Source of the DNA: Dehalococcoidales bacterium
GTDB lineage: Bacteria; Chloroflexota; Dehalococcoidia; Dehalococcoidales; JAFGLR01
NCBI GenBank assembly: GCA_016927955.1
Contig: JAFGLR010000008.1
Coordinates: 1-50,154 of the forward strand
Reading direction: 5' to 3'
Length of the DNA: 50,154 nt
How positions within the stretch are numbered: position 1 is the stretch's first letter; the number at the start of each line of letters is the position of its first letter. A program made the translations under genes and the position numbers. The notes under the pieces were generated by a model. That model ran no database searches. It saw only the letters and a list, made by a program, of their open reading frames with translations, and had not been told where the DNA came from. This document shows positions 11,399-50,154 of this stretch, in pieces.

Positions 11399-13159
11399 AT
11401 GAGTGTTATCGAAGAAGTTAAGCAGCGGACGGATATCGCCGAGGTTATCGGGCAGTTCACCAAGTTAACCAAAGCGGGTAAAACATACCGTGGTTTATGC
11501 CCGTTTCATACGGAAAAGACACCTTCGTTTTTCGTCTATCCGGACCAGCAAAGCTGGCATTGTTTCGGTGCCTGTAATACCGGCGGCGATGTTTTTTCTT
11601 TCATTATGAAGAAACAGGGTATCGAGTTCGGGGAAGCCCTGCGCTACCTGGCGGAACGAGCCGGTGTTACCTTACCCGCTTACCACGAGCGGGAAGGCGA
11701 AAAGGATGAGAAAGAGCGTCTCTTACAAATCAACCGTACCGCCGCCGAATATTATCACCAGCTCTTGAAGACACCAGCGGCCAAACAGGCAAGAGATTAT
11801 CTGGAAGAGCGAGGTTTAACTGCGGAAACCATGGTGAAATTCCAGCTCGGTTACGCCCCTGACAACTGGGAAGTCCTGAAAAATTACCTTATGGACAAAG
11901 GTTACACGGAAAAGGAACTGCTGCAGGGCGGGTTAATCAACCGCTCCGATACCGGTAATAAGACTTATGACCGCTTCCGCCATAAAATTATGTTTCCTAT
12001 TTGCGATATTAAAGGAAATGTAACCGGCTTCGGGGCGAGGGTACTGGATGATTCGCTGCCCAAATATATCAACTCGCCGCAAACCCCGGTATTTGACAAG
12101 AGCGGCAGTCTGTATGGAATAAATAATGCCGCCGAAGCGATAAGGAAAGCAGATGTGGCAATATTCGTCGAAGGTTATCTGGATGTGATAATACCCCACC
12201 AGTACGGTTTTAATAATGTCATCGCTTCGATGGGGACTTCAATAACCGAAAGACAAATCAGTACGGTTAAAAGGCTGACAACGAATGTAGCACTGGCTCT
12301 CGATGCGGATGCTGCCGGAGAAGAGGCAATGCTGCGGACGGTGCAGTATGAAAACCTGCTCAATAATGAAGTAAAAGTCGTCCTTCTGCCGGAAGGCAAA
12401 GACCCGGACGAAGTGATAAAGGAAGATGCTGCCGTCTGGCAAAAGCTGGTAGCAGAAGCCATTCCGGTTGTGGATTTTACCATTAAGACCGCTACCGCCG
12501 GACTGGATTTAAGCAAAGTAAAAGATAAAACGGTTGCGGAGGGAAAGCTCTTACCGGTAATCGCCGGTATTAATAATGATGTCAGAAGAGACCATTATCT
12601 GGAACAACTACGGCTGATGACCGGTTCCAGCTACCGCGGCATGCAGATGGCTTTAAACAAAATAAAAGGCGGGGCGAAAACCGGTAAAGTAGAAACTGAA
12701 ACTACAAAAATTGTGCAGTCGTCATTATCTAATCCGGTAGAAGAATATTTACTTTCGCTTTTGGTACAGCACCCGGAAATTAAGGATTTGGCAGCAGAAT
12801 TGCCGGCAGAATATTTTGAAAGCACCGAAAACCGGGAAATATTTCTGGCGTGGCGAAATAACCAGGAACTTGAGTTGCTGAAAGAGCAACTTGACAATAG
12901 TATACGAGAACATCTTCAATATTTAGTGGAGAAAAAAATACCGGCATCCCATCTCGAACAGAAATATACTGACTGCAGCTTAAGACTGCGGGAAAAGTAC
13001 TCGCGCCATTTAGAGCGAAAAAAGGCGCAGGTTTTGGCTTTGGAGAGGGAAACGGGCGGAACCGATGCTGAATTAGCTAAACTTGAAGAACAGGGTATTA
13101 GTGCTTCTGCTACTTTAAGAGATGTCTTTGCTCAGCGGAGTTTGCACCAGAAGGGGTAA
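11399..13159 (+). CDS. dnaG: DNA primase
   Basis: ORF track 11345..13159 (TTG). Preferred start is ATG 11399 ([18 protein letters not shown]), with ATG 11387 as an alternative. Zinc finger [25 protein letters not shown], Toprim EGYLDV ... [10 protein letters not shown]. Confidence 0.9.
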   Translation: [586 protein letters not shown]

Positions 13160-36350: not shown

Positions 36351-37610
36351 TTATTCCAGCGGGTTCATTACTCTGCCGATGAACATGATGGCATCCGTTT
36401 CCATATCCCGAATCAGGAATATAAACGGCCGGTCAATATTCATATCGACCGGTTTAGCCGGTGCTGTTACGACAATTATCGCTGCGGTGGCTGCGGCCGC
36501 TTCCGTTCCCTTTTCATCTACCGCGACGAAAGCTTTATGGATTACTTTACTGATAAACAAAGGCTCGTAAGTGTCAGCCATTCCGGTGAAATCGGCTTGT
36601 TCGGTAAAAGCCAGCGGCATTCCCATCTCTTCCAGTGTTTTCCCTAATTCAAAATCGGCACTGAACTCGAATTTCGGAAGGGTCAGATTTACCTTTTCGT
36701 GTTCCATGTTTTTAATAATACCTTCGAGGATTGGATAATCCAGGTTATCTTGAAATGATTCAAAATGACCGTTTGCCGGTAAAATAATTACCATTGATGT
36801 CGCCTGCCCCCGATACATTAATTCAATAGCCTGGTAATCTGTCCCTTTTCCGTATTTAAATGTTTCGGTTTGCTTCATCATCGGTACGGAGACGGTTTTA
36901 TCATCTATTAAATTAAAAGTTCCATCAATGGTGTTTCCTTCGTAGAACTCGTAAAGCCACCCTGCTTTGAAGTAAATGGCGTTCGTTAGTACGAGGCGGG
37001 TAAAAGGAGTAATTGCACCCTGTTGTAGCAGATTATTTATACGGTTTTCAGTTCGTTCGCTGACCCAATCATTTATGATAATGCGTGATTCTTCCGGCTC
37101 ATTAATAAAATCTAGAGTCGTTAATTCAGAGCCATAATTCTCTGTCAGAGTATTCAGGAAAGAATCGAGGAATGGATAACCCTGCAGTCCCCATAAAGCA
37201 TTTACATTTCGCAGCATAAAACCTTCTATCTCTGCACCATCGGATTCATAGACACGGTTGGTTATGGTATCGGAAATATTTTTAAATGCCGTGTGTAATT
37301 GGGACTGGGGTAATAGGAAATGTAAGGTGGCTTCCATTTGGTCGGCGGTTTCACCCCGGGCTCCGGCGTAGGTCATTGCCAGCGCCGATGAAATACTGAA
37401 CGGAGAATAAAACAGATTGCCTTCACTGCCTTTCAGTGATTGATAAAGTTCCAGGGCAAAGGTATTATTGCCATAAACCAGGTTTTCCGTGTCTGTTTTA
37501 CTCGCATCGGAAGTTATTATCTGAGATGTCGTTGTTTTGATAGATTGGCTACAGGCAACGGCACCGAACGCTAGTATTCCGATTAACAGAAATATAATTA
37601 CTTTTTTCAT
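36351..37610 (-). CDS. Serpin (serine protease inhibitor), predicted lipoprotein
   Basis: ORF track 36351..37673, trimmed to ATG 37610 (MKKVIIFLLIGILAFGAVAC, signal peptide plus lipobox-type Cys). Serpin hinge/RCL EKGTEAAAATAAIIVVTAPAK and C-terminal signature DRPFIFLIRDMETDAIMFIGRVMNP. Confidence 0.88.
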   Translation of the reverse strand: MKKVIIFLLIGILAFGAVACSQSIKTTTSQIITSDASKTDTENLVYGNNTFALELYQSLKGSEGNLFYSPFSISSALAMTYAGARGETADQMEATLHFLLPQSQLHTAFKNISDTITNRVYESDGAEIEGFMLRNVNALWGLQGYPFLDSFLNTLTENYGSELTTLDFINEPEESRIIINDWVSERTENRINNLLQQGAITPFTRLVLTNAIYFKAGWLYEFYEGNTIDGTFNLIDDKTVSVPMMKQTETFKYGKGTDYQAIELMYRGQATSMVIILPANGHFESFQDNLDYPILEGIIKNMEHEKVNLTLPKFEFSADFELGKTLEEMGMPLAFTEQADFTGMADTYEPLFISKVIHKAFVAVDEKGTEAAAATAAIIVVTAPAKPVDMNIDRPFIFLIRDMETDAIMFIGRVMNPLE

Positions 37611-37793
37611 ATTTACTTGCCTTTGTCTCCAAATATATAAAAAATTCCTAATATGTCTGTTATTATAAATCATACTCTATTATTAATACGAATGTCATTA
37701 ATTTGTATTACAGGTTAGTCTTTGGCTGTAGAACTTAAAAATAATTTTTGTCCCTTTATCTATATTTGTGCTAAACTTTCTACACAGGAGACA

Positions 37794-47978: not shown

Positions 47979-48026
47979 AACATATACCGTTTTTTAATTA
48001 ATGCATGGGAAAAAGACTGGTTAAGC

Positions 48027-48056
48027 TTGACTTTCAAGCTTAAAATATTCGATAAT
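48027..48056 (+). promoter_or_regulatory. Candidate promoter for tRNA-Asn
   Basis: TTGACT (48027-48032), 18 nt, GATAAT (48051-48056), 40 nt upstream of the tRNA. The -35 sits inside the 19-bp palindrome AAGCTTGActtTCAAGCTT (48023-48041). Confidence 0.35.
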
Positions 48057-48096
48057 CATACTTGGTATTTTCCTCAATTTAATCATATTCAAATGT

Positions 48097-48171
48097 TCCC
48101 CGATAGCTCAACGGTAGAGCGGGCGGCTGTTAACCGCTAGGTTCAAGGTTCGAATCCTTGTCGGGGAGCCA
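48097..48171 (+). tRNA. tRNA-Asn (anticodon GTT), CCA encoded
   Basis: Folded by hand. Acceptor TCCCCGA/TCGGGGA, D stem GCTC/GAGC, anticodon stem GGCGG/CCGCT with loop CTGTTAA, 5-nt variable loop, T arm CAAGG-TTCGAAT-CCTTG, discriminator G, CCA. Total 75 nt. Confidence 0.95.
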
Positions 48172-49742
48172 AGTTTATCAATACGCAGAACTTCCTCTGT
48201 AGTGGTTAACCCATTTATCGGTAATGGCATGGTATAGTCAATTACTACATGGGGTTCATTCAATTCAATCCTCTTAACGAAAGATCTCAAGAACGATTTC
48301 TGCTCGATAAAAGAACTGCTAGCAAGAAGTGCTTTCATACTTGATACGTATTCTTGTATCGTTTTTAAATTCAGTGATTGAGGAGACTCCTCATTCATCT
48401 CATCTAAAAGACCGTTTCGTTTCTCTTCAAGTTCTATTTGTTGAGACCTGAGTTCTTTTATGCGAGGTGCCAAATCTTCAAGGTCAATTTTTCCTGTTTC
48501 AAGAGCTGCATAGAGTTTGCTCAATTTACTTTTAACCTGCCCTAACTGTTGTCCGACCTCGCTAAGCTGTTCCTCAAAGTATCCACTATTCTTTACTAGC
48601 TCTTCGTTAACAAGCTGAACTAGTTGTTTGATATTCTCATCGGTGAGGATATTCTCTCTGATTCGTTCTAGAACAAAGCTTTCGAGTTTGTCTTTACTCA
48701 TCAATCGACAATTACAGACTTCCTTTCCTTTTTTCTGGTGCTGGACGCAATCGTAGTAGAAATATTTCCCTGATTTAGCCCAGCATCCGCTCATGGCAGC
48801 CCCACACTTTCCGCAATGCAATAAGCCGCTTAAAAGATATTGACTGGAGATAGTTCGAGGATGTTGAGAGACCGGGCGTCTCCTCGTGAGAAGCTGTTGA
48901 ACTCGTCCAAAATCTTCAGTTGAAACGACAGCCTCATGACAATTTGGAACTCGGATGATATCATTAGATGCTGCCTTACGTGAATTTCCATAACCATTAT
49001 TCCTAAATCTCCAGACAAGTGCACCGGTATAGACTTCGTTCCTTAAGATGTGGTTGATAGCTGTCGTACTGAATTGCTTGCCTGACTTTGTTCTAGTACC
49101 CGCAGCATTTAAGGATTTGGTTATTTCTTTTCCACCTAGACCGCCCACTGCCATTTCAAAAATCTTCTTAACAACGTTAGCTTCATTTTCATCGGGTATC
49201 AGTTTTGTCTTATCGGCCATTCCTATCTTTACTTTTGTTCTCTTGTAACCGAAGGGAGTAAATCCACCATTATAGAACCCCCTGCTAGCATTTTCTTTCA
49301 TTCCCCTAACAGTATCTTGAGAAAGGTTTATCGAATAAAATTCATCTATGACTTCAATAATACCTTCAAGTAGATGTCCTGCCGGGCTTTCATCTACCTG
49401 TTCATTTATAGAAATTACCGAGATACCTCGTTTTCTAAGCAACGACTTATAGAGGATAGAGTCTTCGCGATTCCTGGCAAACCTAGAAAGTTTCCATACC
49501 AGAATGGTATCAAAAGGCTTTTCCTTTTTCTTTGCCATAGCTATCATTTCTTTGAAGGCAGGACGGTTTGCAGTGCGAGCACTTTCGGCTTCATCTACAT
49601 ACTCAACTACTACGTCCCATCCACGTTCTAATGCATATTTTCTTAAAGCTTTTATCTGGGCAGGTATCGATAGGTCTTTTTCAGCTTGCCTTTCGGAAGA
49701 TACCCTAGCATAAATAGCAGCCTTTCCAAGATTATTAACCAT
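48108..49742 (-). CDS. Large serine recombinase (resolvase/invertase N-domain, recombinase domain, zinc ribbon, coiled coil)
   Basis: ORF track 48108..49766. Preferred start is ATG 49742 (GGAGG 5 nt upstream). AAIYARVSSERQ catalytic Ser, LVWKLSRFARN, CGKCGAAMSG...YYDC zinc ribbon, long coiled-coil region. The stop TGA lies inside the tRNA-Asn gene. Confidence 0.92.
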   Translation of the reverse strand: MVNNLGKAAIYARVSSERQAEKDLSIPAQIKALRKYALERGWDVVVEYVDEAESARTANRPAFKEMIAMAKKKEKPFDTILVWKLSRFARNREDSILYKSLLRKRGISVISINEQVDESPAGHLLEGIIEVIDEFYSINLSQDTVRGMKENASRGFYNGGFTPFGYKRTKVKIGMADKTKLIPDENEANVVKKIFEMAVGGLGGKEITKSLNAAGTRTKSGKQFSTTAINHILRNEVYTGALVWRFRNNGYGNSRKAASNDIIRVPNCHEAVVSTEDFGRVQQLLTRRRPVSQHPRTISSQYLLSGLLHCGKCGAAMSGCWAKSGKYFYYDCVQHQKKGKEVCNCRLMSKDKLESFVLERIRENILTDENIKQLVQLVNEELVKNSGYFEEQLSEVGQQLGQVKSKLSKLYAALETGKIDLEDLAPRIKELRSQQIELEEKRNGLLDEMNEESPQSLNLKTIQEYVSSMKALLASSSFIEQKSFLRSFVKRIELNEPHVVIDYTMPLPINGLTTTEEVLRIDKLGSPTRIRTLNLAVNSRPLYR

Positions 49743-50154
49743 ATTTGCCTCCAACTTAACTGTCATAAGTGTCGATGGAATTCTTCTATCATGGTCGGAC
49801 TTATCCGCTCGATTTGCGGAACGAGTAAGTTCCTATTGTTTCCGAGCAAAACCACCAATGCTACTTTGGATAGAGATCCTCGAATAACTAAAGGTGCAGC
49901 GATAGCTGTAAGTCCATCATCGTCTCTGCTATCGAAGATGGTGATTCGGCTGACCAGGTGTGGTTTTTTCGTTTTAAGTACCATATCAACGAGAGAGCCA
50001 GGAAGAACTGTCCTTCCTTTCCTTGGGAATAATGCATCCGCTCCACAAATATTAGCTTCAGGATCATTGTTATTGGCACTACCAGTCCAATAGCTTAATG
50101 TCCAATTATCCACCTCAGGACCCTGCTCATAAAGGGCGCTATATAGAAAAACAC
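48172..50154. mobile_element. Proximal end of a putative integrated element / genomic island at tRNA-Asn (continues past the window end)
   Basis: tRNA gene, then a serine-recombinase integrase, with a visible drop in GC right after the CCA end. Spot hand counts: 25/60 and 21/60 GC at 48181-48300 and 27/60 at 49021-49080, versus 34/60 at 47161-47220. The other boundary is not in the window. Confidence 0.6.
49763..50154 (-). CDS. Hypothetical protein, 5' end probably outside the window
   Basis: The frame is open from the window edge (..VFLYSALYEQGPEVDNWTLSYWTGS...) to TGA 49765-49763, which overlaps ATG 49766 (ATGA). An internal GTG at 50113 is the ORF-track start. No family recognised. It contains an acidic ITIFDSRDDDG motif. 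Confidence 0.5.
   Translation of the reverse strand, partial: VFLYSALYEQGPEVDNWTLSYWTGSANNNDPEANICGADALFPRKGRTVLPGSLVDMVLKTKKPHLVSRITIFDSRDDDGLTAIAAPLVIRGSLSKVALVVLLGNNRNLLVPQIERISPTMIEEFHRHL

Follow-up and report, generated by a model that had tools for sequence, protein, structure and literature searches.

A tRNA-Asn gene overlapped by a large serine recombinase gene marks the probable edge of an integrated element in a Dehalococcoidales bacterium

At the right end of a 50,154-nucleotide stretch of contig JAFGLR010000008.1 from a Dehalococcoidales bacterium (the window), a tRNA-Asn gene overlaps, on the opposite strand, the 3′ end of a gene for a large serine recombinase (LSR). We consider it highly probable that the segment from 48172 to 50154 is the tRNA-proximal, attL-side end of a mobile element placed here by that recombinase. 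A preliminary description of this DNA had already proposed the edge of an integrated LSR element, and the comparisons presented here bear the proposal out: a copy of the element sits in an unrelated host flank in another Dehalococcoidales metagenome-assembled genome (L099), and the closest host relative (L105) has a tRNA-Asn without an adjoining LSR gene. The coordinates of all features are collected in Table 1.

The junction between host and element

The boundary emerges from comparisons of host-type and element-type sequence. Aligned with L105, the window retains host-type identity through the tRNA and loses it at the CCA end. Aligned with L099 and with L001, a further copy of the window element in yet another host flank, it retains element-type identity through the LSR gene and loses it at ACTTGGCTCC (...ACT/TGGCTCC). 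The L099 copy is 89% identical in DNA over 48099–50154; its tRNA-Asn closes a Phe-Leu-Gln-Asn tRNA cluster that adjoins PadR and MFS genes. In the acceptor and T stems, the window and L099 differ by compensatory changes, each fitting its own host 5′ strand. In L014 and L024, which pair similar host sides with different LSRs, homology sets in with the very first base of the tRNA 3′ end. L007 (tRNA-Ile) and L016 (tRNA-Met) carry related elements, which have sequence in common only as far as TGGT. When metagenomes were scanned for junctions with a pattern of 27 specified element-side bases, 13 junctions were found with an identical 27-nt P′ arm, 10 of which were joined to mutually different tRNA-Asn sequences. 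Variants of the P′ arm, with TAA or GGG at positions −6 to −4, adjoin the same or near-identical tRNA alleles, and all four combinations occur.

Five concordant comparisons thus confine the exchange to ACTTGGCTCC, or 48165–48174 on the window (GGAGCCAAGT on the plus strand). Consequently, the tRNA body is host DNA, the element begins at about 48172, and the last ~17 codons of the LSR gene are host sequence read in antisense. The 12 nt that follow the CCA are alike in the occupied site and in L105 (GTTTATCAATAC and GTTTCACAAAAC; 9 of 12 positions after a 1-nt shift, window 48172–48184), a likeness that may reflect similarity between the B′ and P′ inner half-sites, or chance.

A short core also bears on how such elements are delimited. 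The preliminary description had offered a direct repeat of 48122–48171 as the marker of the far att site, and its absence downstream as a refutation. A search of 43 related loci, covering 10 kb on the element side, gave no tRNA repeat of at least 14 nt; repeats of 9–11 nt occur at chance level, and the best one (L006) falls inside an 886-aa open reading frame (ORF). As the shared core is only ~7–10 nt, that test would fail even where the reading is right, and its refutation is not valid: the short core explains the missing repeat, and no long direct repeat is expected at the far end.

The AT-rich segment that the preliminary description saw directly after the CCA is confirmed by full counts. 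GC content is 40.9% in 48172–50154 compared with 47.3% in 1–48096; host segments of equal length average 47.2% (sd 2.1%, minimum 41.1%), none being as low. GC content at third codon positions (GC3) is 0.35 in the LSR gene and 0.37 in the ORF upstream of it, against about 0.50 on the host side and a range of 0.42–0.58 across 29 host ORFs.

By its predicted domains, the recombinase is a bona fide LSR. Pfam matches cover a catalytic Resolvase domain (PF00239, residues 16–163; 1.7e-35) with the serine nucleophile motif IYARVSSERQ, followed by Recombinase (PF07508, residues 193–296; 6.2e-23) and Zn_ribbon_recom (PF13408, residues 311–370; 7.2e-16) domains; a helical stretch at 386–451 is met by a weak coiled-coil-type match alone. 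The protein aligns distantly with the solved TP901-1, SPbeta and A118 integrase structures, and look-ups of the exact 552-aa and 544-aa proteins gave no match. Translation probably starts at the second ATG of the ORF, M9 at 49742, to give a protein of 544 aa, because GGAGG lies 5 nt upstream and P0002, a 92%-identical protein, is called at 544 aa. An LSR of 544–552 aa pointing at the tRNA, as first described, is therefore upheld by its three domains, with the amendment that the gene does not just adjoin the tRNA: it continues in antisense across 64 of the 75 tRNA nucleotides to a stop at 48108–48110, in the D-loop. Codons within 48172–49742 belong to the element, and the last ~17 with the stop (48108–48164) are tRNA antisense. 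In P0001, an LSR 98% identical, the protein ends 12 codons sooner, in the T-loop, and among relatives the ORF ends in the T-loop (L001 too), in the D-loop or beyond the tRNA. As the tail is not conserved, we take it to be read-through; the LSR has probably gained in it a functionless extension.

On the host side, tRNA-Asn is the single tRNA that ARAGORN finds in the whole window, and its CCA is encoded. It is identical to the L105 tRNA-Asn at 75 of 75 positions. The 5′ flank at 48026–48096 is kept in L105, where a 160-nt match spans flank and tRNA at 91% identity and the flanking host genes are 73–78% identical in DNA; 3′ of that tRNA lies an ORF for a small membrane protein, with no relative of the LSR. 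Everything left of the tRNA had been described as housekeeping, and it is indeed host core, with a seven-gene run (orotidine-monophosphate decarboxylase, FolC, PadR, DegV, PlsY, epimerase and a steroid dehydrogenase (steroid-DH)) that is syntenic with L102, L105 and L106, three host relatives retrieved through the steroid-DH-like gene. L102 and L106 were set aside as LSR-free empty sites: they are syntenic, yet have no tRNA-Asn at the corresponding place. A 38-base pattern from the tRNA 5′ flank, used to look for an empty site in the same species, had 0 matches in Joint Genome Institute (JGI) metagenomes. Between window 47979–48096 and L105 4554–4712, the orientation of the tRNA-Asn with its 71-nt 5′ flank is reversed with respect to the steroid-DH gene. 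One breakpoint of the inversion falls at the tRNA 3′ end, and an inversion mediated by att sites is conceivable. Farther into the host side, a 440-aa ORF on the minus strand (36351–37673) has 41.6% GC and a GC3 of 0.42, the lowest GC among the host-side ORFs checked, and sits inside a 2-kb stretch with 41.3% GC.

Table 1. Features of the tRNA-Asn locus and of the visible part of the element
Feature	Position	Strand	Remarks
Promoter-like site TTGACT-18-GATAAT	48027..48056	+	Host side, in the 71-nt tRNA 5′ flank; consensus scan
Host tRNA-Asn(GTT)	48097..48171	+	Intact; attB-side half of the junction; ARAGORN
LSR ORF	48108..49766	-	552 aa; three Pfam domains; nucleophile motif YARVSS
Inferred common core/crossover interval, the attL junction	48165..48174		GGAGCCAAGT; ACT/TGGCTCC on the LSR strand
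Visible part of the probable integrated element	48172..50154		AT-rich, drop in GC and GC3; continues past the window end
GAAGTTCT motif (codons E-V-L)	48187..48194	-	-23..-16 from the tRNA end; candidate distal P′-arm recognition motif
C-terminal 129 codons of a conserved 309-aa, putatively ImmA/IrrE-like protein	49763..50154, runs off the window	-	Homology to L099

tRNA overlap across related loci

The arrangement in the window recurs throughout a family of loci. A homologue scan with one genome per species returned 80 loci whose LSRs are 43–79% identical to that of the window, spanning Chloroflexota, Elusimicrobiota, Verrucomicrobiota, Planctomycetota, Omnitrophota, Melainabacteria, Zixibacteria and others. 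In more than half of these loci, a tRNA on the opposite strand overlaps the LSR gene. Junctions were aligned for 44 of the 80 and for the viral contig L081, L099 and the window, 47 in all, and in every one of them an opposite-strand tRNA overlaps the LSR 3′ end in the same frame. The overlapped tRNAs have nine specificities, mostly Asn, with Met, Ile, Arg(CCT), Gln, Asp, His, Ala and Val; no transfer-messenger RNA (tmRNA) gene was found in any related locus examined. More widely, homologues of the LSR make up more than 3,700 protein clusters at E ≤ 1e-30, and 87 of the 120 nearest clusters end with a recognisable tRNA-antisense peptide. In a rough neighbour-joining tree, users of Met/Ile, Arg, Gln, Asp/His and Val tRNAs are interspersed among Asn users, and this intermixing suggests that the LSR family has switched its tRNA target repeatedly.

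Within the gene, the motif GAAGTTCT holds an invariant position in the 47 loci, with zero indels between it and the tRNA end and with its valine wobble base conserved; the LSR protein immediately upstream varies in length. On our reading, the motif would be the distal part of the P′ arm, carried in the last codons of the integrase and mirroring the GAAC of the T-loop about a centre in or beside the CCA.

In many relatives, the tRNA is also followed at once by a strong hairpin and a U-run, on the tRNA strand and inside the 3′ coding end of the LSR gene (folding z = −4.6 for L030 2925–3013, −5.3 for L017 2988–3076 and −1.5 for L007 11480–11568). The stems covary between loci (GGCAGAAC/GTTCTGCC, GGTAGAAC/GTTCTACC, ATAGAAC/GTTCTAT and GAGAGAAC/GTTCTCTC), and the hairpin looks like an intrinsic terminator that the element supplies to the tRNA as a replacement, laid antisense in the integrase gene. 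For the 89 nt that follow the window tRNA (48172–48260), z is −1.15, and for the equivalent in L099 it is −0.02; the terminator of the relatives is absent in both.

Some junctions depart from the common pattern. A few that lack a tRNA body keep only 6 (L107), 9 (L042), 13 (L113) or 16 nt (L108) of tRNA 3′ sequence, and may be attP-like or tandem junctions. In L113 and L042 (11590–13480), inserts of 0.66 kb and 1.85 kb part the LSR gene from an intact tRNA-Asn, with only 8–9 nt repeated. To the right of 3430 in L122, a window-type LSR end joins, after TGGCTCC, a host flank with a DegV-like gene and no tRNA. After the match at 1333–1362 in L114, a tRNA-Asn-like sequence that ARAGORN does not recognise lies beside a window-type LSR, apparently split at the T-loop and the anticodon loop by short palindromes (TCCTTC...GAAGGA).

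Several seemingly tRNA-less exceptions are tRNAs split in the anticodon loop by group I introns, at 11605–12057 in L022 and 11596–11830 in L081 (Rfam RF00028, 80–86 bits). The exon flanks in L022 are those of tRNA-Asn(GTT); the Asn call in L081 comes from the ARAGORN intron mode alone, as do the introns beside the LSR 3′ end in L033, L035 and L045, for which the anticodon calls are inconsistent. We know of no group I intron reported in tRNA-Asn. L081 was considered as a free attP form and ruled out because its tRNA carries such an intron, and likewise L022.

The gene module beyond the window

Upstream of the LSR gene, the ORF that the preliminary description had left unrecognised can now be placed: it matches residues 181–309 of a conserved 309-aa protein, with 86% identity to that of L099. 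The stop codon of this ORF and the first ATG of the LSR ORF overlap. The full-length partner lies directly upstream of the LSR gene in many loci, and in relatives it stands between an XRE repressor and the LSR. The homologue in L083 matches Peptidase_M78 below threshold (E = 0.0035; 17.6 bits against a cut-off of 22) and has HEFRE where the HEXXH motif is expected. The positional counterpart in L107 has a clear precomputed PF06114 hit, and the L107 and L099 proteins are barely alignable (BLASTP E = 0.013 over 40 aa).

As the preliminary description had expected, any cargo lies to the right of the window. In L099, the closest relative, the copy continues for 8.3 kb. This stretch encodes the full 309-aa partner, a 131-aa XRE repressor, a divergent 80-aa helix-turn-helix (HTH; Cro-like) protein, a Gp3-like recombination directionality factor (RDF; PF18897), a 731-aa DUF3854 primase-like protein, a DnaJ-domain protein and an AAA/MCM-like ATPase, and the contig then ends. 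The Gp3-like protein is encoded ~2–3 kb upstream of the LSR gene start in both L099 and L083. The contigs of the closest copies, L099, L100 and L001, also end inside the element.

At 85–98% protein identity, the L099 backbone resembles the IMG/VR viral contig IMGVR_UViG_2540341061_000001 (L083, L101, L110), whose own LSR is just 43% identical to that of L099 and has no adjoining tRNA. To judge from these alignments, the integrase module has evidently been swapped between L099 (1–8279) and the IMG/VR relative (L083/L101), with a breakpoint near the end of the ImmA-like gene. Deeper in the IMG/VR relative there are many unknown membrane-anchored ORFs, an S8 protease and a small tyrosine recombinase; resemblances of its ORFs to ArdC, Fic and a sliding clamp were seen by eye only. 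A PHROG scan of ten of its ORFs gave no structural match, a protease and a primase being the sole matches. In L101 (12500–20800) and L110 (10700–12200), several of the unknown ORFs have Met-rich hydrophobic tails (for example ...MMPMVMMLMMMGMIMP), and the same run holds two paralogous gene pairs (274 and 253 aa; 283 and 237 aa) and the S8 protease, without a PHROG structural match. The products of this run may belong to the virion or envelope of a virus type not yet described. The window contains no capsid, portal, terminase or tail gene, and L108 carries a Terminase_4 gene. On the whole, the cargo in relatives suggests an element that replicates itself and is possibly viral, not an island for metabolism or defence; it may be a virus, an integrative plasmid or a satellite.

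Mechanism, alternatives and known systems

We propose that an attP inside the 3′ end of the LSR's own gene recombines with an attB made up of the tRNA-Asn 3′ tip and the flank beyond it. Strand exchange would occur within the ~7–10 nt common to both sites, GGAGCCA(AGT), at a dinucleotide that should lie in 48165–48174. Integration would leave the tRNA unchanged and wholly host DNA, and the integrated LSR gene would cross attL and read antisense through the host tRNA to a chance stop in the D-loop. By analogy with relatives, the LSR, the ImmA/IrrE-like protein and an XRE repressor just past the window would form an operon that acts as an induction switch, and excision would need a Gp3-like directionality factor whose gene would lie a few kb deeper in the element. 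In ICEBs1 the order is immR-immA-int, which the putative order int-immA-immR at the tRNA-proximal end would match.

Several points weigh against this proposal. The dyad-symmetry signal about the proposed centre is weak, at 0.33–0.35 over a background of ~0.24, with weak peaks at −1.5, +1.5 and +2. The ImmA assignment of the partner is also weak, drawing on a sub-threshold Pfam match and gene order. An empty tRNA-Asn site, which the preliminary description had suggested looking for in relatives, is found in L105 as far as the LSR is concerned; however, L105 is another species, its tRNA-Asn is inverted relative to the steroid-DH gene, and it is not a clean isogenic empty site. The attR, the excised attP and the rest of the copy are not among the DNA observed, so that the integrity and activity of the element are unproven. 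Lastly, the 16 and 13 nt of tRNA-like sequence kept at the tRNA-less LSR junctions of L108 and L113 would also fit a deeper crossover.

Such a crossover is known from the ssrA islands of Dehalococcoides, which have a 20-bp repeat and insert in the T-loop of the tmRNA gene (PMC3146451). Were the geometry here like that of their DsiB recombinase, exchange would take place in the T-loop, the element-borne last 16–24 nt would replace those of the host tRNA, and a ~20-bp repeat would mark the far end. Besides L108 and L113, where the tRNA 3′ sequence stands beside the LSR without a tRNA body, the translated tails of L037, L025 and L026 speak for this, diverging only past the T-loop region. Yet identical P′ arms adjoin ten differing tRNA-Asn sequences, whose acceptor- and T-stem 3′ strands always pair perfectly with host 5′ strands, and the window tRNA matches the LSR-free L105 throughout; a repeat of at least 14 nt was not found in the 43 loci searched, and L042 and L107 retain no more than 9 and 6 nt. 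We judge T-loop exchange to be quite unlikely. Somewhat less improbable, though still unlikely, is that the locus is an immobile remnant, in which the LSR operon of an old insertion has been inherited vertically with the tRNA locus after the rest was deleted or decayed. The window stops 2 kb into the element, so the existence of the rest is not shown, and degenerate arrangements do occur in relatives, among them the 0.66–1.85-kb inserts of L113 and L042 and the tRNA-less L122. However, neither ORF is disrupted and their domain matches run the full length; the copy in another genome (L099), 89% identical in sequence, has an intact 8.3-kb module, and composition shows no drift toward the host. 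The contig breaks inside the element in L001, L099 and L100 read as repeated or variable sequence, and not as a fixed remnant.

The overlap of the integrase gene with the tRNA could also be functional in itself, if a swap of the integrase C-terminus for a tRNA-antisense peptide on integration, or antisense RNA against the LSR from the tRNA promoter, or both, let the enzyme sense integration. Integration-dependent remodelling of genes occurs elsewhere, in the integration-dependent immunity of mycobacteriophages and in the SSV1 int gene; the frame is conserved at all loci, and no terminator stands between tRNA and LSR in the window and L099. However, neither the length nor the sequence of the tail is conserved, P0001 and L001 stopping in the T-loop and others in the D-loop or past the tRNA, and the strong tRNA terminator inside the LSR 3′ end of many relatives would block antisense read-through. 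The LSR frame is constant because the 23-nt spacing in the DNA is fixed. We thus regard a function for the overlap as very unlikely, and favour integration at the tRNA tip with a tail acquired by read-through.

Of known systems, the ssrA islands come closest, as the preliminary description had suggested. Their first gene at attL encodes a ~540-aa serine recombinase, DsiB, and contains the att repeat (McMurdie et al. 2011, PMC3146451). The window agrees in having a ~540-aa reverse-strand serine recombinase first at attL with att in its 3′ end, in targeting the tRNA-like 3′ end of a small stable RNA gene, in its low GC and in its Dehalococcoidia host. It differs in its target, tRNA-Asn here and other tRNAs in relatives rather than ssrA, and in its core, which spans ~7–10 nt at the CCA tip where the islands have a 20-bp repeat from the T-loop. 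The suggested likeness does not extend to the gene module: L099 has ImmA-like, XRE, HTH, Gp3-like RDF, DUF3854 primase, DnaJ and AAA/MCM proteins, whereas the islands have DsiB, DsiA, RecF-like and ParB proteins, Mom with an embedded (pseudo-)tRNA-Gly, and an RNA-polymerase-domain protein. We therefore treat the window element as analogous to the ssrA islands yet not a member of them, set apart by target, repeat and genes.

In domain architecture and short core, the LSR is like the phage integrases phiC31, phiBT1, Bxb1, TP901-1, A118 and SPbeta SprA, and related elements share with phage LSR systems a Gp3-like directionality factor (PF18897). Unlike in those phages, attP would lie inside the integrase ORF, and among 50,697 phage records none had a protein at least 60% identical to the LSR, identity to any being only about 30%. 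Serine-integrase cores are usually 8–12 bp and sometimes 3–5 bp, and tyrosine systems rebuild the tRNA from an element-borne copy of 20–45 bp (PMC9303363). As in tRNA-targeting tyrosine islands and prophages (e.g. P4-type), the tRNA here is kept intact and the integrase is the first gene beside it; unlike in them, almost none of the tRNA is replaced, and the recombinase family and chemistry are different. Tycheposons of Prochlorococcus are described as replicative, cargo-carrying elements with primases and helicases, to which the present elements can be likened by description, and in 27 of 937 an LSR takes the place of the tyrosine recombinase (Hackl et al., bioRxiv 10.1101/2020.12.28.424599); the preprint text, as far as available, does not describe the att geometry of those with an LSR. 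The word tRNA is absent from the full text of a large LSR survey that predicts thousands of att sites (PMC10083194), and in the open-access literature searched we found no description of a serine-integrase family acting at the tRNA tip.

The locus in the window is itself one more tRNA-integrated element, with its cargo out of sight. Its foreign DNA starts at 48172, with a precision of a few bases. Part of the integrase C-terminus as annotated is antisense tRNA sequence, which calls for caution in annotation, and tools that rely on long tRNA repeats will overlook the distal ends of such islands. Compared with known designs, docking at the tRNA tip, an attP in the integrase's own ORF, the fixed 23-nt spacing and the use of several tRNA targets are apparently undescribed, and integrases with a highly conserved natural landing site could be of practical use. 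We raise as a tentative possibility, which we do not expect to hold in its full breadth, that a large cross-phylum family of serine integrases uses the generic tRNA 3′ end (T-arm, acceptor strand and CCA) as attB, with exchange at the tip sparing the tRNA. If so, the P′ arm would reside in the last integrase codons (GAAGTTCT at −23), the target would have switched repeatedly from Asn to Met/Ile, Arg, Gln, Asp/His, Val and Ala, and many elements would supply a replacement tRNA terminator antisense in the integrase gene. The family would then represent a second, mechanistically independent way to integrate at a tRNA without breaking it, and would supply integrases whose landing site is predictable, conserved and retargetable.

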